Positions 40,978 through 55,826 of a DNA stretch of 64,000 nucleotides are shown here, in pieces. The first letter of the stretch is position 1. Each line of letters begins with the position of its first letter. The DNA is from Myxococcota bacterium (GTDB lineage Bacteria; Myxococcota_A; UBA796; CAJQPC01). The stretch spans positions 1 to 64,000 of the forward strand of contig DASCPX010000134.1 of NCBI GenBank assembly GCA_036012755.1. The letters are read 5' to 3'. The notes under the pieces are model-generated. The model saw only the letters and a program-made list of their open reading frames with translations, was not told the DNA's origin and ran no database searches. The translations under genes were made by a program, and so were the position numbers.

Positions 40978-41598
40978 CTACCCGGAGAGGAGCTCGCCGA
41001 GGTGTGTCACGAGGCTCTCGACGACCCCGTCCCACTCGGGCGCCACGCCACGCTCGCCTGCCATCGAGGTCATGATCCCGGCAGTGAGGCCGCAAGGATT
41101 GATGCGTCCGAACCAGGCCAGATCGGGATCGACGTTGAGGGCGAGACCGTGCCAGCAGACCCACCGGCGGCAGGCGATGCCGACGCTCGCGACCTTGCGC
41201 TCGCCGATCCATGCCCCTGTGTTGCGGGCATCGCGAGTCGCTCCCAGGCCGAAGTCGGCGCAGGTGCGGATGCAGGCCTCTTCGAGGTTCCAGAGGTGGC
41301 GATGCAGGTCACGCCTGCCCTCTGGCAGCTGCACGATCGGGTAGGCCACCAGCTGGCCTGGGCCGTGCCAGGTGACGTCGCCACCGCGCTCCACGGCGAT
41401 GACGTCCATGTCCCCTGGGGCGAGCACGTTCGAGGCGCTCGACCTACGCCGGCCCAAGGTGATGACCGGACTGTGCTCGACCAGCAGCAGGGTGTCTGGG
41501 ATCTGCCCGGCGATGCGCGCCGCGAGGAGCTCCTCCTGTCGGGCATGCGCGAGGGCGTAGGGAACGCCCCGACCGAGATCCTCGATGATCAGAGGCAA
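40978..41598 (-). CDS. lipB: Lipoyl(octanoyl) transferase
   Basis: LLVEHSPVITLGR, RGGDVTWHGPGQLVAYP, KVASVGI, HGLALNV, INPCGL; start TTG 41598 or CTG 41592. Confidence 0.93.
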   Translation of the reverse strand: MPLIIEDLGRGVPYALAHARQEELLAARIAGQIPDTLLLVEHSPVITLGRRRSSASNVLAPGDMDVIAVERGGDVTWHGPGQLVAYPIVQLPEGRRDLHRHLWNLEEACIRTCADFGLGATRDARNTGAWIGERKVASVGIACRRWVCWHGLALNVDPDLAWFGRINPCGLTAGIMTSMAGERGVAPEWDGVVESLVTHLGELLSG

Positions 41599-42155
41599 GC
41601 GAGGACATCGTGGTAGACGTCCTCGACGGACTGCCCGGCGTCGACGCGCACGACGCGCTGCCCCCCTGCGACGAGCAAGGCCAGGGCTCGCTCGTAGGAG
41701 TCGCGTATCGCTGTCAGCTTCTCCAGGGACTCGAAGCGATCCCGCACCCCCCCGCGAGCGTCGATTCGCGCCAGGCAGCCTTCGACCGAGAGCTCCAGGA
41801 AGACCGTCACGTCCGGGGCGCGGAAGGCGGAGTTCAGCTGCCAGACATGCTCCAGCGGCGCAGCGAGGCTCTGGTAGGCGAGGGAGGAGGCCACGTAGCG
41901 GTCCGTGACCACGGACTTGCCCGCGGCCAGCAGGGGCTCGATCTCGCGCTCGAGGTGGTCCCGGCGATCGGCGGCGAAGAGGTAGGGCAGGACCCCCTCT
42001 CCGAGCATCTCTGCGTCGGCCAGCGCCGCCCGGATCAGCTGGCCTATCGGGCCGGTCGAGGGCTCGCAGGTCTCGTGGGCACCCAGCGCGGAGCAGAGCA
42101 GGCGGACCTGGGTGGTACCGCCGGAGCCGTCGAGTCCTTCGATCGCAACGAACAT
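41589..42155 (-). CDS. tmk: dTMP kinase
   Basis: IEGLDGSGGTTQ, EP, LFAADR, TDRYVASSLAYQ, PD, DRFE. Confidence 0.88.
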   Translation of the reverse strand: MFVAIEGLDGSGGTTQVRLLCSALGAHETCEPSTGPIGQLIRAALADAEMLGEGVLPYLFAADRRDHLEREIEPLLAAGKSVVTDRYVASSLAYQSLAAPLEHVWQLNSAFRAPDVTVFLELSVEGCLARIDARGGVRDRFESLEKLTAIRDSYERALALLVAGGQRVVRVDAGQSVEDVYHDVLACL

Positions 42156-46315: not shown

Positions 46316-46732
46316 CTACTCTACGGCCAACAGCTCGATGTCGAAGAGCAGGGTCGAGTAGGGCGGGATCGGTCCGGCGCCCTTGACCCCGTAGCCGAGC
46401 TCTGGCGGGACCATCAGCCTGCGATGCCCGCCGACACGCATCCCGGCCACCCCGAGGTCCCAGCCTCGGATGACCTCGCCTGCGCCGAGATCGAACGAAA
46501 ATGGGGCGTTACGCGCATACGAGGAGTCGACCACCGTGCCGTCCCCGAGCGTCAGCGAGTAGTGCACCGTCACGGCCTGGCCTGGCTCGGCCATAGCCCC
46601 TTCGCCGACCCGCACGTCCGTGATCAGCATGCCGTCTTCTGTGAGGACCGCGTTGTCCGGGATCACGGTCCGAGGCACAGGCGGGGCCTTTGGAGGACAA
46701 CCCAGGAGTCCCAGGATCAAGCACAGACTCAC
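46316..46732 (-). CDS. FKBP-type peptidyl-prolyl isomerase, lipoprotein
   Basis: VTVHY, DSS, VIRGWD.GV.GM.VG, PPELGYG, IPP.STL.FDIELL; GTGA overlap with lpdA. Confidence 0.92.
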   Translation of the reverse strand: MSLCLILGLLGCPPKAPPVPRTVIPDNAVLTEDGMLITDVRVGEGAMAEPGQAVTVHYSLTLGDGTVVDSSYARNAPFSFDLGAGEVIRGWDLGVAGMRVGGHRRLMVPPELGYGVKGAGPIPPYSTLLFDIELLAVE

Positions 46733-48135
46733 TTGTTCATCACGTGGATGGCCTCTCCTCGAGCGTGCTTTGCTGCCTCCATGAGGGCCTCGCCGAGGGT
46801 CGGGTGGGGGTGGATGGTGAGCCCGATGTCGAGGGCCTCTGCCTGCATCTCGCAGGCGAGCGAAGCCTCGGAGATCAGGTCCGAGGCGTGGGGTCCGATG
46901 ATCGTGACACCAAGCAGCCGCTCGGTCGCGGCGTCGAGGATGACCTTCACGAAGCCATCCGTCTCCCCGGTCGTCATTGCCCGACCGACCGCGGCGAAGG
47001 GCATCTTGCCGACCTTGATGTCGAGGCCCTTGGCCCGGGCGTCGTGCTCCATTATCCCAGCGGTCGCGATCTCCGGGTCGGTGAAGACCACCGCCGGGAC
47101 CTGGATGTAGTCGAGCGCGATCTTGTGTCCGGCGATGACCTCTGCGCAGATCTCTCCTTCGTGCGTGGCCTTGTGCGCCAGCATCGGGGCTCCGGCGACG
47201 TCGCCGATGGCGTACACCCCCGCCACGCTGGTCCGACACTGCTCGTCGATCTTGATGAAGCGTCCGTCCAGCTCGATCTCGCCGAGGGTCTCGAGCCCGA
47301 GCTCCTCTGTGTTCGGGGAGCGCCCCACGGTCACCAGGACGCGGTCGCACTCCAGTGACTTCGCCCCCTTGGGGGTCTCGATGTTCACCACGGCGCAGCC
47401 GTCGCCCTCTTCCCAGCCCAGGGCCTTGCTCTTCACGAAGGTGGTGATCTTCGACTTCTTCAGCTTGCGCTTGATCAGGCGGATCCCGTCTGGGTCGAAG
47501 GCCGGCAGCACGGACTCGGCCATCTCGACGACCGTGACGTCACAGCCGACCTTGTGCAGCATCTGGCCCAGCTCGAGGCCGATGTAGCCGCCGCCGATGA
47601 CCACGAGGCGTTCTGGGACGGTCTCCAGCGCGAGCGCATCGCGAGAGGACATGATGCGCAGCTCGCTGAAGTCGAAGCCCGGGATCTGGATGGGACGGGA
47701 GCCCGTCGCGATGACGATGTGCTCTGCTTCGACGCGCACCTCGCCATCATCGGTCTTCACGACCAGCTTGCCGGGACCGTCGAAGCGCGCGGTGCCCACC
47801 AGGCGGTCGGCCCCGTTGTTCTTCAGCAGTGTCTGGACCCCGGCCGTGAGCTTCTTCACGATGCCGCCCTTCCACTTCTGGAGCTTCTTCATGTCCAGGC
47901 TGACGTCACCGGACACCGAGATGCCGATGTCGCCGGCGCGCTGGATCTCCTCGAAGCGCTTGCCCGCCGTGATGAGGGCCTTGCTGGGGATGCACCCGAC
48001 GTTCAGACAGACACCACCCCAGAACTCCTTCTCGATGATCAGCGTCTTCACACCCAGCTGCGCGAGGCGGATGGCGCAGGGATAGCCGCCGGGGCCGGCG
48101 CCGATCACCACGGCCGTGTACTTGCGAGTCTCCAC
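46729..48135 (-). CDS. lpdA: Dihydrolipoyl dehydrogenase (E3)
   Basis: GAGPGGY, GGVCLNVGCIPSK, GGGYIGLE, AIGD, MLAHKA, HPHPTLGE. Confidence 0.95.
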   Translation of the reverse strand: METRKYTAVVIGAGPGGYPCAIRLAQLGVKTLIIEKEFWGGVCLNVGCIPSKALITAGKRFEEIQRAGDIGISVSGDVSLDMKKLQKWKGGIVKKLTAGVQTLLKNNGADRLVGTARFDGPGKLVVKTDDGEVRVEAEHIVIATGSRPIQIPGFDFSELRIMSSRDALALETVPERLVVIGGGYIGLELGQMLHKVGCDVTVVEMAESVLPAFDPDGIRLIKRKLKKSKITTFVKSKALGWEEGDGCAVVNIETPKGAKSLECDRVLVTVGRSPNTEELGLETLGEIELDGRFIKIDEQCRTSVAGVYAIGDVAGAPMLAHKATHEGEICAEVIAGHKIALDYIQVPAVVFTDPEIATAGIMEHDARAKGLDIKVGKMPFAAVGRAMTTGETDGFVKVILDAATERLLGVTIIGPHASDLISEASLACEMQAEALDIGLTIHPHPTLGEALMEAAKHARGEAIHVMNK

Positions 48136-48148
48136 TACTCCTCCCAGA

Positions 48149-48826
48149 TCAGCTGATCAGGTTCGCTTCGTTTGGCTCGGTCTCCGTGAGCTCGTCGTAG
48201 GCCCGCGCCAGCGGGTCCTCTCCCTGGATGAGCCGCGCCTCGATGAAGCGGGGTCCGCCGGCTGCCCGCGCGTCCGTGACGGCGGAGAGCACCTCTGTGA
48301 TCAGACCCCCGTCCACCGCGCGGGCTTGCATCCCGAACGCCAGGGCATGGGCCGACAGGGGCCCGGCCAGCTGGCGGGCCAGCGGCGAGTCCGGGTGCTC
48401 CAGGTTCCACGAGTGGGCCAGGAAGATGACCCGCAGCTTGTGCAGGGAAGCGAGGTTCAACGCCTCGTGGAAGGCTCCGTAGCTCGCGCTCCCCTGCCCG
48501 ATGAAACACAGGACAGCGGCGTCCTGGTCGCGCAGTGCCATCGCGAGGCCGCAGGCATGGAGCATGCGCGCGGCGGGCGCACTCGAGACCGGAGTGATCC
48601 GGTAGGGGCGCGCTCCGGACCCCGGATCGAGCAGGCGGTCGCGGGGGCAGTCTCGGAGGACCCCGCCAGCGCGCTCGCGCAGGCCGGGCACGACCCAGTC
48701 CTTGCGCTCGATACCCAGGAAGCCACCGGCGATGACCGCCTCGAGGCCGCGGAGGGGCACGGACCCCTGCTGGCTGAGCCAGTCGCCCACCTCTCGAACT
48801 TCGTGCAGGGCCGCTCGCATCGACAT
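48149..48826 (-). CDS. 2-oxoacid dehydrogenase E1 alpha-like protein, degenerate
   Basis: GLEA, HACGLAMAL, FIGQGSASYGAFHEALNLA, VDG, PRFIEA; only 225 aa; ThDP motif altered. Confidence 0.8.
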   Translation of the reverse strand: MSMRAALHEVREVGDWLSQQGSVPLRGLEAVIAGGFLGIERKDWVVPGLRERAGGVLRDCPRDRLLDPGSGARPYRITPVSSAPAARMLHACGLAMALRDQDAAVLCFIGQGSASYGAFHEALNLASLHKLRVIFLAHSWNLEHPDSPLARQLAGPLSAHALAFGMQARAVDGGLITEVLSAVTDARAAGGPRFIEARLIQGEDPLARAYDELTETEPNEANLIS

Positions 48827-49990
48827 CTACAGGTGCTCCCAGAACAGGGTCTCGGGGGCTTCCAGGATCTCCTTGAGCGCCGTGGTCCAGCGTGCCGCCA
48901 CCGCCCCGTCGATGATGCGGTGGTCGAAGCTGGAGGACAGATACAGCATCTTGCGGACGACGATCTGGCCGCCTCGCACGACCGGCCGCTCATGGATGCG
49001 GTTCACGCCGAGGATGGCGACCTCTGGGTGGTTGAGGATCGGCGTCGCGAACATGCCGCCGAAGGCCCCGACCGAGGTGATGGTGAAGGTGCCTCCGCTC
49101 AGCTCGTCGAGGCTGACCGTGCCAGCGCGGGTGCGCTCCGTGAGGTCCGCGATCCGCGCCGCGAGTTCCAGCACGGAGAGCCTCTCCACGCTCTTCACGA
49201 CCGGGACGAACAGCCCCCGCGGTGTGTCCGTGGCGATGCCGATGTTGACGTCGCCCTCGACGACCAGGGTCAGGGGATCCTCTTCGACGTTGGCGTTGAC
49301 GTTCGGGAACTCGCGAAAGGTCATCACCAGCGCCTTCATCAAGAAGGGCAGGAAGGTGAGCTTGATGCCGCGCTCGGCCGCCCGCGGCTTGAGCCGACGC
49401 CGCATGTCGTCCAGCGAGGTCATGTCGACCTCGTCGACGTAGGTGAAGTGCGGCGCCGTGAAGCGGCTCTTCACCATCTGCTCGGCGATCTTGCGCCGCA
49501 GTCCGATGATCTCGATGCGCTGTCGCTTGCCCGTCGGCGGGGCCTTGGCCTGGGCCACCGCCACGGGCGCCCGGACGAACTGCTGGAGGTCCTTTTGCAA
49601 CACCCGGCCACCCTTGCCGGAGCCCGGAACGCGGCCGAGGTCGACCTCCAGCTCACGAGCCCGACGCCGGACCGCTGGCGTGGCGACGGCCTTGCCGGAG
49701 ACGACTGGCGGGCTGGCCTTGGGAGCGATGGGCTGCGGGCTGGCCTCGGCTGAGCCGTTCGTGTCGATCTCTGCGAGGGGCGCGTGGACCTTGATCACGT
49801 CACCCGGCTCGCCGTGGAGCAGGTGGACCCTGCCACCCTTCGGCGTGCTGATCTCCACGGTCGCTTTGTCCGTCATGATCTCGCAGACCGGCTGATCGAC
49901 GGCGATGACGTCGCCCTGTTCGACAAGCCACTGGACGATCTCGCCCTCGACGACGCCCTCGCCGATCTCGGGAAGCTCGAAGGTGAACAT
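48827..49990 (-). CDS. Dihydrolipoamide acyltransferase (E2)
   Basis: Lipoyl domain MTDKA, subunit-binding ATPAVRRRA..GSGKGGRV, catalytic FDHRIIDG. Confidence 0.93.
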   Translation of the reverse strand: MFTFELPEIGEGVVEGEIVQWLVEQGDVIAVDQPVCEIMTDKATVEISTPKGGRVHLLHGEPGDVIKVHAPLAEIDTNGSAEASPQPIAPKASPPVVSGKAVATPAVRRRARELEVDLGRVPGSGKGGRVLQKDLQQFVRAPVAVAQAKAPPTGKRQRIEIIGLRRKIAEQMVKSRFTAPHFTYVDEVDMTSLDDMRRRLKPRAAERGIKLTFLPFLMKALVMTFREFPNVNANVEEDPLTLVVEGDVNIGIATDTPRGLFVPVVKSVERLSVLELAARIADLTERTRAGTVSLDELSGGTFTITSVGAFGGMFATPILNHPEVAILGVNRIHERPVVRGGQIVVRKMLYLSSSFDHRIIDGAVAARWTTALKEILEAPETLFWEHL

Positions 49991-49999
49991 CAGCTGACC

Positions 50000-50848
50000 T
50001 CAGTAGGTGACGGAGGCGACGGAGGCCTCGACGATCGACGTGATCTCGACGTCCGCCCGTCTCGGCGGGGACTCGAGGTAGAGAAAACACTCGGCACAGA
50101 GCACGCCCAGGGCCCGCGCTGCGTAGGCCTCCGAGCCCGAGACGAGGACCACACGAGCCGTGCGGCGGACCGAAGCCGACAGCCGCTCCAGCTCCAGGGG
50201 CCACAAGCTGCGCAGGTCGACGACCTCGGCGGAGATGCCTGAGCTGCCGAGCTCTTCCGCGGCGGCGAGGGCCACCGGGATCCCGCCCCCATAGGCGAAC
50301 AGGGAGATGTCCTCGCCCTTGCTCTGGAGCTCCGAGCCGCTGCTGGCGTAGAGGCTGCGCGCCTCCAGGACGACCGTCGGGCGGGTGGACTCGAGCGCCT
50401 CCATCAACATGGCGGCGGCATCGGCGGCGTGAGACGGGGCGACGACGTCGAGGCCATCGAAGCCCGCGACGAGACTCTCTGGGTGCTCGCCCGGGGAGCC
50501 GGGGAGATCGCCGTAGGGTGTGCGGACGACCAGGGGCACGGTGAACTCGGAAGAGCCAGCGGAGATGGCGCTGGCTTCCTGGACGAGCTGCTGAAACGCC
50601 CGGGGCAGTCCGCCGGTCAGCTCCACCACCGGCCGCTTGCCTCCCAGGGCGAGGCCGACCGCCAGGCCGACGACACCGGCTTCGGACAGGGGGGTGTCCA
50701 CGACGCGCCCGGGGAACTCCTCCGCGAGCCCGGTGGTCGTCCCGTGCAGGCCGCCCAGCCGGCCGACGCTCTCGCCCAAGAGCAGGACGCGGTCGTCCTC
50801 GGCCATCGCCGCGCGCAGGGTCTCTCGGATGGTCGTGGCGGCGTTCAA
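50000..50848 (-). CDS. 2-oxoacid dehydrogenase E1 beta-like protein, degenerate
   Basis: TTGA overlap with lipA; LLGESVG..GG, DTPLSE, RPVVE, VVDLRSLWPL. Confidence 0.85.
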   Translation of the reverse strand: MNAATTIRETLRAAMAEDDRVLLLGESVGRLGGLHGTTTGLAEEFPGRVVDTPLSEAGVVGLAVGLALGGKRPVVELTGGLPRAFQQLVQEASAISAGSSEFTVPLVVRTPYGDLPGSPGEHPESLVAGFDGLDVVAPSHAADAAAMLMEALESTRPTVVLEARSLYASSGSELQSKGEDISLFAYGGGIPVALAAAEELGSSGISAEVVDLRSLWPLELERLSASVRRTARVVLVSGSEAYAARALGVLCAECFLYLESPPRRADVEITSIVEASVASVTY

Positions 50849-51741
50849 GAGGCTGTCCCCTTCTGGACGATCTCGCGGATGAAGTACTCGCCGGCCCGGT
50901 AGCTGCTGCGAACGAGCGGGCCGCTGGCGACGTAGTCGAAGCCCAGGGCCAGGCCCTGCTGCTCGTACCAATCGAAGGTCTCGGGGGTCACGAACTCGCG
51001 CACGGGGAGGTGTCTCGCAGAGGGCTGCAGGTACTGCCCGACCGTCAGGAAGTCGACGCCGGTTTCGCGGAGGTCGTGCATGGCTTGGAGCACCTCTGCG
51101 GGTCTCTCGCCGTGGCCGACCTGGATCGAGGACTTCGTGTGGCCCCGAGCGTGCCGCAGCACGTCGAGGGACTGCTGGTAGCTGGCGCGCGGGTCCCGCA
51201 CAGTGGCGCTGAGGCGCTCTACGCACTCGATGTTGTGGGCGAAGACCGTCGGCTCCGCGTCGAGCACGACGTCGACGAGGTCCGTGCGGCCGCTGAAGTC
51301 GGGGGTGAGTACTTCGACCATGGTCTTGGGGGATGCCTCGTGAACCGCATGGATGCAAGCGGCGAAGTGGCCGGCGCCCTGGTCCGCGAGGTCATCGCGG
51401 TTGACGCTGGTCAGCACCACGTAGTCGAGGGAGAGCTCCAGGATTGCGCGGGCGACGTGTTCTGGCTCGTCGGTTTGCAGCGGCGGCCCGATCCGGCGGG
51501 TGTTCACCGCGCAGAAGCGGCAACCGCGCGTGCAGATCTCGCCCATGAGCATGAAGGTGGCCGTTCCGCCGCCCCAACACTCGCCGGTGTTCGGGCACAT
51601 CGCCTCCTCGCAGACGGTGTGGAGCCCGAGCTCTCTCGCGCGGGTCTTCAACCGCCGGTAGCGCTCCTGGCGCGCGCCCGTCGGGAGCTTGACCTTCAGC
51701 CAGGGGGGCTTCCGCACGACCTGCTCCGGGTGGCAGGCCAT
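50845..51741 (-). CDS. lipA: Lipoyl synthase
   Basis: CEEAMCPNTGEC, CTRGCRFC, LTSVNRDDL, HNIE, GQYLQP, VRSSY. Confidence 0.95.
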   Translation of the reverse strand: MACHPEQVVRKPPWLKVKLPTGARQERYRRLKTRARELGLHTVCEEAMCPNTGECWGGGTATFMLMGEICTRGCRFCAVNTRRIGPPLQTDEPEHVARAILELSLDYVVLTSVNRDDLADQGAGHFAACIHAVHEASPKTMVEVLTPDFSGRTDLVDVVLDAEPTVFAHNIECVERLSATVRDPRASYQQSLDVLRHARGHTKSSIQVGHGERPAEVLQAMHDLRETGVDFLTVGQYLQPSARHLPVREFVTPETFDWYEQQGLALGFDYVASGPLVRSSYRAGEYFIREIVQKGTAS

Positions 51742-51774: not shown

Positions 51775-53331
51775 ATGGCGCAAGATGGCATGGAGATCCT
51801 CGATCTCATCCCCGACGTCGCGATCCGCGTCGAGGGCGGGAAGATCGTCCACCTGAACACCGCCGCGACGGAGTTCGTCGGTGAGGCCTCGGTCGGCCAG
51901 TGCGCAGAGGACGTCCTCCCCATCGCCGCGCTCGATGCCCTCGACAGGATGGACCCGGAGCCCGCCGCCTGTCGCCACCTCGACGGAACCAACCGCGTGG
52001 TGCACTGGCGGGTGAGCCGGTTTGGCGGAGGTCAGCTGCTGCTGGGACGAGACGTGACGGGGCAGGTCGAAGCGACCACGGCGCTGGAGCTCCAGATGCG
52101 CCGCCTCGAAGCCCTCCACAGCATCACGCTCGCCGTCGCGCGGGGCGAGGACATCGGCTCCATCTGCGACATCGCCTTCCGCAGCCTGGCGCCCATCGTG
52201 TCCATCGTCCGAGGGGGCGTGGCGGCGCTGGAGGGCAACGATCTCCGCGTCTTCTACCACTGGAACAGGGGCCACTCGGTCCTCGGAGACCGCCGCACCG
52301 TGCGAACGGACCAGACGCCCTCCCACAGCTGCATCGTCAGGCGCATGCCGGTCCAGATGCGCACGACCGGCTCGGCCGCGTTGCGCTGGCGCCAGTTCCG
52401 CAGCCTGCAACGGGCCGGTGTCCGCGCTGTGCTCTACACGCCGCTCATCGGCGGGGATCGCATCTTCGGGCTCATCAGCCTGGGAACCGGCGACCTCGCC
52501 GGCTTCTCCCCAGAGGACATCGAGGCCGTCAGCGAGGTCGCAGCTCAGATCTCCGCGGCCATGGAGCGCAGCCAGCTGCTCGCTCGCATCGAGGGCAACA
52601 CCGAGGAGCTGGAGAGGGCTGTCGAGGAGCGCACTGCGGAGCTGGAGCGCACCACCGAGCAGCTCGTCCACGCGGCGAAGCTCTCTACCCTAGGTGAGCT
52701 GGCCGCCGGCCTCGCCCACGAGCTGAGCCAGCCGATCAGCGTCGTCAGCGGCCACATCGAGCTCCTCAGAGACGACGACGTGCCAGAGGACCGAGAGCAG
52801 CGCGTCCTCGAGATCATGGGGGGCGCTGTCGAGCGCATGGGGGCGCTGACGAAGAAGCTCACGAACTACGCCAAGGCGCAGCCAGAGGCGATCGAGCCCT
52901 TCGATCTCCGAGTCGCGGTCGACATGGCGCTGGAGCTCTCCGACCACGTGGAGAAGAACGTCGAGGTCCGGTGGGAGCGCCCTCCCTTCCCCGTCGAGGC
53001 CCTTGGCGACGTGCACCGCATCGAGCAGGTCCTCATCAACCTCCTCACCAACGCGCAGCAGGCCACCGCCGATGCCGGCGGATCGGTCGTCGAGATCGTC
53101 ATGGGCGCCTCGGAAGACGGGCGGGCCTGGGTCGTCGTCCAGGACGAGGGCCCTGGCGTCCCGCTCGATACGGGCAATCGCATCTTCGACCCCTTCTTCA
53201 CGACGCGGAAGGGTGGCACGGGGCTGGGCCTCGCCATCTCCGCCCGCATCGTGCAGGAGCACGGCGGCAGCCTCGCGCTGGAGCGGAGCGAGCAAGGAGC
53301 CCGCTTCCGCATGGTGCTCAATCAGGCCTGA
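51775..53331 (+). CDS. Sensor histidine kinase (PAS-GAF-HisKA-HATPase)
   Basis: GELAAGLAHELSQP, QVLINLLTNA, DEGPG, FDPFFTT, GTGLGL. Confidence 0.92.
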   Translation: MAQDGMEILDLIPDVAIRVEGGKIVHLNTAATEFVGEASVGQCAEDVLPIAALDALDRMDPEPAACRHLDGTNRVVHWRVSRFGGGQLLLGRDVTGQVEATTALELQMRRLEALHSITLAVARGEDIGSICDIAFRSLAPIVSIVRGGVAALEGNDLRVFYHWNRGHSVLGDRRTVRTDQTPSHSCIVRRMPVQMRTTGSAALRWRQFRSLQRAGVRAVLYTPLIGGDRIFGLISLGTGDLAGFSPEDIEAVSEVAAQISAAMERSQLLARIEGNTEELERAVEERTAELERTTEQLVHAAKLSTLGELAAGLAHELSQPISVVSGHIELLRDDDVPEDREQRVLEIMGGAVERMGALTKKLTNYAKAQPEAIEPFDLRVAVDMALELSDHVEKNVEVRWERPPFPVEALGDVHRIEQVLINLLTNAQQATADAGGSVVEIVMGASEDGRAWVVVQDEGPGVPLDTGNRIFDPFFTTRKGGTGLGLAISARIVQEHGGSLALERSEQGARFRMVLNQA

Positions 53332-55826
53332 CGGCGCCTGCGGACCAGGGCCAGGCCGAGGAGCCCGAACAGGGCGACACCACCGGCGGGGGTGCTGGTG
53401 GTGCAGCTGCAGCCGCCTCCCTTGTCGCCACCGTCGAGACCGGAGTCGCCGAACCCCGTGTCGCACCAGTCCCAGACGTCGGGGTCCTCGTCGTCGCAGT
53501 CGGCGTCGACGCCGTAGCCGTCGAGATCCTGGTCGTCGTCGTTGTCGTCGCAGTTCTGGTCGATGCCGTCGTACCAGGTCTCTTCGGCGTCGGGGTTGAT
53601 GTCCGAGTTGCTGTCGTCACAGTCGTCGCCGTCGTCGCCGCCGTCGAAGCCGTCACCGTCCTGGTCGTACTCGTCCGCCTCGTCGCAGTCGGTGACAATC
53701 CCGTCGTAGGGGGTATCCGGCGCGCCTGGGTAGGTGTCGGCGTCCGCGTCGTCACAGTCGTCGCCGCCGTAGGTCGCCGAGTCGTGGCCGTCCCCGTCGG
53801 CGTCGTAGTCCGAAGCCTCGTCGCAGTTCGAGTCGATGTCGTCGTACCAGGTGTCCTCTGCGTCCGGGTTGATGTCGGGGTCGTCGTCGTCGCAGTCGTC
53901 CCCGTCGGGGCACAGCTCGGAGAGGAAGCCGTCGGCGTCCACGTCGCACCAGTCGCTGCCGTCGCAGTCCTGGTCGATCCCGTCGTATGGGGTCTCCGCG
54001 GCGCCGGGGTAGCTGCCGGCGTCGTTGTCGTCGCAGTCGGTGTCGTCGGTCACGTAGTTGGAGGGCTGGTCGCACTCCACATCGCTGACATCAGGGTCGC
54101 CGAAGCCGTCCGAGTCGTTGTCCGCATACCAGGTGGTCGCGTCGACCGCGTCGTCCTCGTCGATGTCGCCCTCGCAGTCGTTGTCGATGCCGTCGCAGTA
54201 CTCCTTGGCGCCGGGGTAGGCCCTGGCGGCGGTGTCGTCGCAGTCGTCTCCGCCAACGACCGACGCGTCACCATCCCAGCCGCCGCTGTCCTGCGTGCAC
54301 TCGACGTAGCCGTCGCCGTCGTCGTCGGTCTCGTCGCCAGGGATCGAGCCGTCGCAGTCGTTGTCCTGCCCGTCGCAGAGCTCCGCGGCGCCGGTGTAGA
54401 CGGTGGCGTCGCCGTCGTCGCAGTCGTCCGTGTTGTCCGCCTCGCCCACGTCCGAGCAGTCCAGGTCGCTGGAGGTGACGTGGTCGGTGTCGCCGTAGCC
54501 ATCGCCGTCGTCGTCGGTGTAGCAGGTCTCCTCGTCGTCGCAGTCGCTGTCGACGCCGTCGGCGATGCCCTCTCTCTCGCCTGGGTTGATGCTGCTGTCC
54601 GAGTCGTCGCAGTCGGTGCCAGCCGTGACGTCTCCGCTGGCATCTGCGTCGCCGTAGTCGTCGCCGTCGGCATCGGTCATGCAGTCGGTGGCCGAGTCGC
54701 TGGGCGCTGCCCCGGGGTAGGTGTCCGCGTCGCTGTCGAGGCAGTCGGTGTCGTCCGAGACGTAGCCGCTGGGCTGGTCGCAGTCGTCCTGGGAGTCGCT
54801 CGCGTCGCCATAGCCGTCCGAGTCGTCATCCGCGTACCAGGTGTCCTCGTCGACGGCGCCTTCGTCCACCGTGCCATCACAGTCGTCGTCGTCCCCGTCG
54901 CAGTACTCGTCCGCGCCTGGGTAGATCGTGGCGTCGTCGTCGTCGCAGTCGTCCCCGCCGCAGACCTCTGCGAGCACCCCGTCGCCGTCGGCGTCGCAGA
55001 TCGAGCAGAGATCGGCCTCCACCTGGATCTCGGACTGGGCGCCGGACTCGGTGTCCGAGAGGGTCACGAGGAGGGCGAAGCTGGTGCTGTCCCCCGCTGC
55101 GATGGTGCTGACGTCGTGGCGCCAGTGCATCGTGTAGTCCCCCGAGGCGCTGCTTTCGTCCGTGAGGGTGGCGTCGGCGTCCATCTCCCAGCCGCTGCTG
55201 TGACCGTACTCGTCGCCGGTCTGGCAGCCGTAGAAGCCGACCGTGTACCCGGACGAGGTCCCGATCGACTGCACCATGTCGTCCGAGCCGTCTCCGTCGA
55301 GGTCCTCGACCGAGTTGTAGGTGTTGTAGTTCGAGCTGTACCCGCCGCAGCCCCCGGCGTCGGGATCCGGGTCGATGGCGTGCACGAACTGGAGGTCGCT
55401 CACGTCGCTCGTGCCCGTGTTCTCCACGATGTACTGGACCGACATGACCGTGCCGGAGACCTCCCAGTACTCGATCTTGGTGATCTCCAGATCCCCCGCC
55501 GTCCACTCGTAGACCGAGACCATCTCCGTGCTCGTGGACAGATCGGTCTCGCTGTCGACCGTGAGCGTCGCGCCGTAGTAGCTGTTGGCGTAGTAGTCGT
55601 AGCTGGAGCCACCCTGGTCGTACATGAAGGCGACGTGCGACCAGGGAGTGCCCGGGTAGGTGAAGTCGCAGAAAGAGGTCGCGGTCCCGGTGCTGTCGTA
55701 CTCCAGCCCCTCGCCGAGGCTGCCGCTGTAGTCGTTCCAGGCGCCGTTGTCGTCGTAGGTCGCCTGGATGTAGTCGCCGGTCAGGGACTGGGCGGCCAGT
55801 GCTGGGAGCACGAGAGCGAACAGCAT
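53322..55826 (-). CDS. Secreted MopE-type (DCDD..PGA.E.CDG.D.DCDG) repeat protein with MYXO-CTERM-like tail
   Basis: More than ten Asp/Cys repeats; C-terminal KGGGCSCTT..hydrophobic..RRRR. Confidence 0.9.
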   Translation of the reverse strand: MLFALVLPALAAQSLTGDYIQATYDDNGAWNDYSGSLGEGLEYDSTGTATSFCDFTYPGTPWSHVAFMYDQGGSSYDYYANSYYGATLTVDSETDLSTSTEMVSVYEWTAGDLEITKIEYWEVSGTVMSVQYIVENTGTSDVSDLQFVHAIDPDPDAGGCGGYSSNYNTYNSVEDLDGDGSDDMVQSIGTSSGYTVGFYGCQTGDEYGHSSGWEMDADATLTDESSASGDYTMHWRHDVSTIAAGDSTSFALLVTLSDTESGAQSEIQVEADLCSICDADGDGVLAEVCGGDDCDDDDATIYPGADEYCDGDDDDCDGTVDEGAVDEDTWYADDDSDGYGDASDSQDDCDQPSGYVSDDTDCLDSDADTYPGAAPSDSATDCMTDADGDDYGDADASGDVTAGTDCDDSDSSINPGEREGIADGVDSDCDDEETCYTDDDGDGYGDTDHVTSSDLDCSDVGEADNTDDCDDGDATVYTGAAELCDGQDNDCDGSIPGDETDDDGDGYVECTQDSGGWDGDASVVGGDDCDDTAARAYPGAKEYCDGIDNDCEGDIDEDDAVDATTWYADNDSDGFGDPDVSDVECDQPSNYVTDDTDCDDNDAGSYPGAAETPYDGIDQDCDGSDWCDVDADGFLSELCPDGDDCDDDDPDINPDAEDTWYDDIDSNCDEASDYDADGDGHDSATYGGDDCDDADADTYPGAPDTPYDGIVTDCDEADEYDQDGDGFDGGDDGDDCDDSNSDINPDAEETWYDGIDQNCDDNDDDQDLDGYGVDADCDDEDPDVWDWCDTGFGDSGLDGGDKGGGCSCTTSTPAGGVALFGLLGLALVRRRRQA

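Follow-up and report, generated by a model that had tools for sequence, protein, structure and literature searches.

The E1 genes of a 2-oxoacid dehydrogenase operon in a Myxococcota bacterium encode two chains that appear catalytically dead and have been retained. The operon occupies positions 46316..51741 of the stretch of DNA analysed here (the window, positions 1 to 64,000 of contig DASCPX010000134.1). 2-Oxoacid dehydrogenase complexes are textbook three-enzyme machines, and here the α chain of the first enzyme (225 amino acids, 48149..48826, minus strand) and its β chain (282 amino acids, 50000..50848, minus strand) have lost catalytic residues across their orthologs. The comparison supports their description as a retained pseudo-enzyme. 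This dead pair, as we call it, is real and conserved, and it is new within a known complex. That it is kept as a pseudo-enzyme and that a fused α–β E1, encoded elsewhere in the genome, acts as the catalyst is, taken jointly, very probable.

The two chains were aligned to those of Geobacillus E1 (1W85 in the Protein Data Bank, PDB), which provides the reference numbering. According to a published account (PMC2663715), the GDG...NN motif binds Mg and diphosphate through Asp173 and Asn202, the NH of Ile144 binds the cofactor, thiamine diphosphate (ThDP), and roles are assigned to His271, His128, Glu59, Phe85 and Tyr102. In the window α chain GQG at 110-112, AHSW at 137-140 and IEARLIQGEDPL from 195 replace Gly172-Asp173-Gly174, Asn201-Asn202 and the Arg267..His271 loop, respectively. 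Gln111 thus stands for Asp173, Trp140 for Asn202, and there is no His271 loop. The chain also ends about 100 residues early with the C-terminal third absent, and lengths across the family range from 182 to 230 amino acids. Motifs were counted in 48 α orthologs (one truncated and one frameshifted sequence left out), 36 β orthologs (one partial and one unextracted sequence left out) and 20 fused E1 sequences. Neither Asn202 nor His271 occurs in any of the 48 α chains, all of which lack the loop; Asp173 is found once, in a sequence without Gly172, and Arg103 is present in 47. The loss of the ThDP/Mg motif and of the TYR..GHS loop, reported in a preliminary description of this DNA, is therefore confirmed against both the reference structure and the orthologs.

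The β chain tells a more mixed story. ELTGG, starting at residue 76, replaces EIQFF, the HSQ motif is absent and the equivalents of Gln81, Phe82 and Phe85 are missing; Gln81 and Phe85 occur in none of the 36 orthologs. To that extent the chain is degenerate, as first described. What had been overlooked is Glu56, the equivalent of the cofactor-activating Glu59, which is Glu in 18 and Asp in 17 of the orthologs (an acidic residue in 35/36). His122 aligns with His128 using HMMER, and only three of 36 orthologs have His in that column.

Other positions have been gained or kept. Five α residues, Gly48 (47/48), Arg52 (45/48), Pro74 (43/48), Pro84 (42/48) and Arg87 (47/48), are absent from 29 live α chains. 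They adjoin the Tyr102-Arg103 and Ile144-Gln147 positions that line the cofactor site; Pro84 replaces Ile144, and a conserved Pro74-Tyr75 pair lies near the old site. The central helix G-x-F-x-E-A-L-N persists in the α chain (Glu121 in 47/48), as do core residues in the β chain. The ortholog alignments contain no new His, Cys, Asp or Lys conserved at 80% or above in either chain. All 36 β chains retain Phe255-x-x-Leu258-Glu259-x-Pro261, where Glu259 aligns with Glu285 of the Geobacillus enzyme, and 29 end in an aromatic residue, which is tyrosine in the window.

The fold is predicted with confidence. AlphaFold2 models of the α and β chains have predicted local distance difference test scores of 92.8 and 93.9, and Foldseek gives E1 chains as the best matches to both, with template modelling scores of 0.80 to PDB 3DV0 and 0.92 to 1UM9_B, respectively. 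A codon model applied to 13 genomes of the family gives ratios of nonsynonymous to synonymous substitution (ω) of 0.086 for the α chain, 0.154 for the β chain, 0.070 for E2, 0.071 for E3 and 0.060 for LipA. Pairwise values in 13 comparisons are 0.06-0.47 (α) and 0.16-0.52 (β), and the sequence identity of the pair drops to 27-50% across the order. Conservation and ω in relatives had been proposed as a check on the initial observation; motif loss is order-wide and selection is purifying. Strain-specific decay is rejected, given the motif losses in 48 α and 36 β orthologs and this mode of selection.

Where, then, is the catalyst? The genome (96% complete) yields three matches to E1_dh: SucA beside SucB, the window α chain and a fused α–β E1 of 733 amino acids. 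The last, at 85574-87772 of contig C129 (locus L002), stands alone with no E2 or E3 adjoining. It is the canonical E1 that the preliminary description had suggested seeking elsewhere, and Asp173, Asn202, His271, Glu59, Gln81 and His128 are kept in 20/20 fused sequences. Its closest solved relatives are branched-chain E1 structures and its homologs are named 2-oxoisovalerate dehydrogenase, a substrate class for which no NCBIfam cut-off is reached. Pyruvate is handled by an aceE-aceF pair on contig C179. Because that pair covers pyruvate, SucA sits with SucB and the fused E1 is an orphan, the operon E2 is left with one unassigned catalytic partner. An earlier suggestion, that this lipoyl-based complex does something other than decarboxylate oxoacids, is unlikely in view of an orphan fused E1 that has all the motifs and no E2 of its own, and of the window lpdA being the only full-length E3 found.

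The fused E1 differs from the operon chains at the positions associated with E2. Glutamate occupies the Glu285 column in 36/36 dead β chains, in 17/17 live operon β chains and in 0/20 fused sequences, where the alignment is gappy; the terminal aromatic residue is likewise found in 0/20. The β part carries an insert of about 25 residues. At the C-terminus a variable linker of some 13 poorly conserved residues is followed by P-P-R-[FYW]-F-x-x. Among 54 close homologs, position -5 is Arg in 53 and position -3 is Phe in 52; six of 12 distant homologs have the Arg. Because these residues keep a constant spacing from the C-terminus, the carboxylate itself may be read by a pocket, whichever protein that pocket belongs to.

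Sixty relatives in seven families were searched. A fused E1 ortholog, 62-75% identical, is present in all 52 genomes of six families and in none of the eight of the seventh (f2), two loci of which were read and contain an ordinary live E1-E1-E2-E3 operon. The dead α chain is found in 51 of the same 52 genomes, 45 from loci that were read and six judged from match rows (two of them partial); the genome that lacks it is 78% complete. Of 38 loci, 36 have E2 directly before the α gene and the remaining two begin at contig ends; a frameshift in the α gene occurs in a single locus (G004). A profile search of 301 genomes of the phylum confines the dead α family to the order, nine weaker matches outside being live α chains. 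A DNA-pattern scan of the genome collection returned one locus only and a plasmid search gave distant E2s only.

The wider operon across the phylum reads lipA, α1, β, E2, α2, E3, lipB. Of the loci compared, 40 were picked from 99 matches by score and family spread and are not a random sample. Outside the order there are 19 genomes with a fused E1, of which 15 have a dead α1 and a live β, three (family f52) have both chains dead and one (G285) shows no dead α. A split sister of the fused E1 occurs in 26 genomes; in the nine that were read the α slot is dead in three, empty in five and live in one. Of the 32 genomes that carry neither the fused nor the split sister E1, the slot is live in 30, empty in one and dead in one. 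Intermediates with a dead α, a live β and a second live α survive across the phylum, and a fully dead pair is seen in at least two lineages. In three genomes of family f8 an α2 gene lies within about 1-4 kb of the fused E1. The dead α of the window order sits in the α2 slot and shares the L-R-E of α2 (Leu in 24/48); in the tree it groups with dead first α chains, on long branches. Neither an α1 nor an α2 origin is rejected by the approximately unbiased test (p = 0.19 and 0.11).

Three further observations concern these loci. In the other lineage where neither E1 subunit next to E2 is live (L169, L193 and L265, family f52), which also has a fused E1, even Glu59 is lost and Glu285 is Asp. At L163:4899-6230 and L165:6799-7974 the α2 gene is also decaying, with the His loop gone, a possible step to the fully dead state. 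Six loci (L215, L216, L221, L212, L237 and L167) have two live-looking E1α genes sharing one β gene, possibly a two-substrate or mixed E1.

The preliminary description proposed a pseudo-enzyme acting as scaffold or regulator. Motifs, ω and fold bear out the retained pseudo-enzyme; of the two roles we favour a scaffold or adaptor over a regulator. We give an even chance to the proposal, drawn from sequence comparison, that the dead pair does no catalysis and serves as an adaptor, docked on the binding domain of E2 and holding the separately encoded fused E1. In Geobacillus E1β, Glu285 and Phe324 bind the E2 domain, and we take L-E-x-P to be the E2-docking site. A published account places one E2 binding domain on the E1 two-fold axis (PMC2663715). 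By analogy, the dead chains would assemble as an α2β2 tetramer and bind the E2 domain via Glu259 and the terminal aromatic residue of the β chain. The fused E1 would have replaced the operon E1 as catalyst, the dead pair staying as the link to E2, and would decarboxylate 2-oxoacids, likely branched-chain. LipA and LipB would lipoylate E2, whose lipoyl domain would receive its acyl group from the fused E1 and be reoxidised by E3. The fused enzyme may be held on the pair; the simplest way would be for its R-x-F-x-x-COOH tail to sit in the rebuilt pocket, where the tail Arg could approach the kept Glu56 and the terminal carboxylate Arg50, Arg52 and Arg87 of the α chain. More tentatively, and with the odds somewhat against it, the emptied thiamine pocket may now act as a receptor for a peptide, namely the C-terminal tail of a fused E1 of foreign origin. 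The resident E2 core would in this way have taken on an acquired enzyme, and the pair would be a fourth kind of subunit.

Several points weigh against such an adaptor. The L-E-x-P helix may be retained solely because two β chains meet there, the partner of the tail could be the fused E1 itself, E2 or E3, and the fused β alignment is gappy near Glu285. For the co-occurrence of fused E1 and dead α, only four independent pairs are available on the β tree; the same direction is seen in 3.5 of them on average and the opposite never, which is not significant (p = 0.125). G285 (97% complete) has a fused E1 and no dead α was seen, though there is a live β with the motif; G272 (91%) has a dead α and no fused E1 was found. 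Three genomes have a dead α beside the split sister E1, the β chain of which (read in L189) has no tail.

What else might the pair do? It could be a regulator or sensor that docks on E2 and competes with E3 for the binding domain, its rebuilt Arg-rich pocket taking a small anion (2-oxoacid, acyl-CoA, nucleotide or thiamine phosphate) and not a peptide, and the fused E1 reaching E2 by other means. Arg50, Arg52 and Arg87 with the kept Glu56 around the old pocket could accommodate any anion, all complexes of the genome share one E3 and its docking is therefore a plausible control point, and G285 has its fused E1 without a dead α. We regard this as unlikely: it leaves unexplained the absence of the docking motif and the gain of a fixed-length tail in the fused E1, and nothing points to separate control of the pair, which is co-translated with E2. 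Less probable again is a hybrid, tetramer-like E1 of one fused chain and one dead αβ unit, in which only one of the two sites is live and the dead half supplies the E2 dock. Retention of the α central helix and of β core residues would fit, and lineages with a dead α, a live β and a second live α suggest mixed tetramers. However, the fused β sequence differs where the two β C-terminal domains meet, the fused chain would be required to form an active site within a single chain, and the new α pocket residues would not be needed.

We give the same low weight to a structural relic, in which the pair, once the fused E1 had taken over catalysis, was kept only to space or stabilise the E2 core or the binding of E3 and makes no contact with the fused E1. 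Selection on the β chain is relaxed about twofold relative to E2 and E3, identity falls to 27-50% across the order, and the α slot is empty in five of the nine genomes read with a split sister E1. Yet ω for the α chain is near the values for the enzymes, conserved residues have been gained that live α chains lack, and only one locus read shows a frameshift. Least probable by some distance is a residual enzyme that binds ThDP in a new way or performs new chemistry on the lipoyl arm. The acidic residue at the Glu59 position and the near-invariant Arg103 are what such an enzyme might retain, but the Mg ligands, the His271 loop and Phe85 are missing, Pro replaces Ile144, the His128 column is not conserved and neither chain has acquired a conserved His, Cys, Asp or Lys. 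The adaptor remains the role that we prefer.

The other operon genes are as the preliminary description had them. The order lipA-E1β-E2-E1α-lpdA-FKBP is correct: all six genes lie on the minus strand, spaced by -4 to 13 bases without frameshifts, and the GC content at third codon positions of the five large genes is 0.88-0.91. Lipoyl synthase (lipA, 50845..51741) scores 369 bits against a TIGR00510 cut-off of 310 and has both Cys clusters and RSSY; its stop codon is overlapped by the TTG start of the β gene. E2 (48827..49990) comprises lipoyl, peripheral-subunit-binding and catalytic domains (PF00364, PF02817 and PF00198), with TDKA (Lys42), the binding domain and DHRIIDG, including the catalytic His, all kept; the closest solved structure is 3DUF_I. 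E3 (lpdA, 46729..48135) scores 547 bits against a TIGR01350 cut-off of 409, retains CLNVGC and HPHPT, and is the only full-length E3 found by tblastn of the genome. E2, E3 and LipA are thus intact, as had been stated. The FKBP-type isomerase (46316..46720, PF00254) is not a conserved member and was rejected as part of the system, since of 38 loci read only one, from the same genus, also has it beside the operon. A lipB-type octanoyltransferase (40978..41604, minus strand, PF21948), said to lie about 5 kb away, is placed at 4.7 kb, loosely linked downstream with tmk; among relatives, 12 of 38 loci include it within the DNA that was retrieved.

Elsewhere in the genome there are two stand-alone E2-like catalytic domains with no lipoyl domain and DHR..DG kept (C160:64891-66039 and C70:78820-79848), and a short second SucB C-terminus at a contig start (C81:226-573), which may be a duplicate or be left over from assembly. 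No thymidylate kinase was found in the genome other than the one in the window (41589-42155, minus strand); it passes TIGR00041 and has G-L-D-G-S-G-G-T-T without the Walker A lysine, which is absent in 13/13 copies read across the order. In a large acidic secreted protein (53322-55826, minus strand) D-C-D-D recurs many times, and the C-terminal tail resembles a sorting signal.

If the adaptor proposal is correct, a selected, E1-derived dead subunit would represent a new architecture, with a cofactor pocket turned binding site. It would also be a route for wiring an acquired enzyme into an existing complex, of which the phylum preserves steps. There is a correction to annotation too, as the genes are labelled active E1 subunits and the likely catalyst is encoded elsewhere.

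How does the dead pair compare with known systems? A literature search covering few subscription journals found no published account of a dead E1. To our knowledge the known non-catalytic additions to these complexes derive from E2. The nearest parallel is E3BP (protein X) of eukaryotic pyruvate dehydrogenase, described in two accounts (PMC9681731, PMC8146983); it too is paralogous to a subunit of the complex, lacks catalysis and recruits a peripheral enzyme. E3BP, however, is E2-derived and recruits E3, whereas both dead chains are E1-derived by Pfam and Foldseek and would recruit another E1; this is analogy only, not homology. EsgAB (MXAN_4564-4565) of Myxococcus xanthus is named as a branched-chain E1 (PMC4320627). 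It is thus a myxobacterial locus of that kind, and the fused enzyme has branched-chain E1s as its nearest solved structures and, within the phylum, a split sister clade. The likeness is one of description, and EsgAB is encoded by two genes and the fused E1 by one. The closest relatives of the dead pair are the heterotetrameric E1s, namely the Geobacillus complex of pyruvate dehydrogenase E1 and the peripheral-subunit-binding domain (1W85, 3DV0) and the Thermus and human branched-chain E1s (1UM9, 1DTW). They give the best sequence matches and share the fold in both chains, an operon with E2 and E3, the β L-E-x-P motif and the terminal aromatic residue. The dead pair differs from them in the loss of Asp173 and Asn202, the His271 loop and Gln81, Phe85 and His128, and in its short α chain, catalysis having probably moved to the fused E1.

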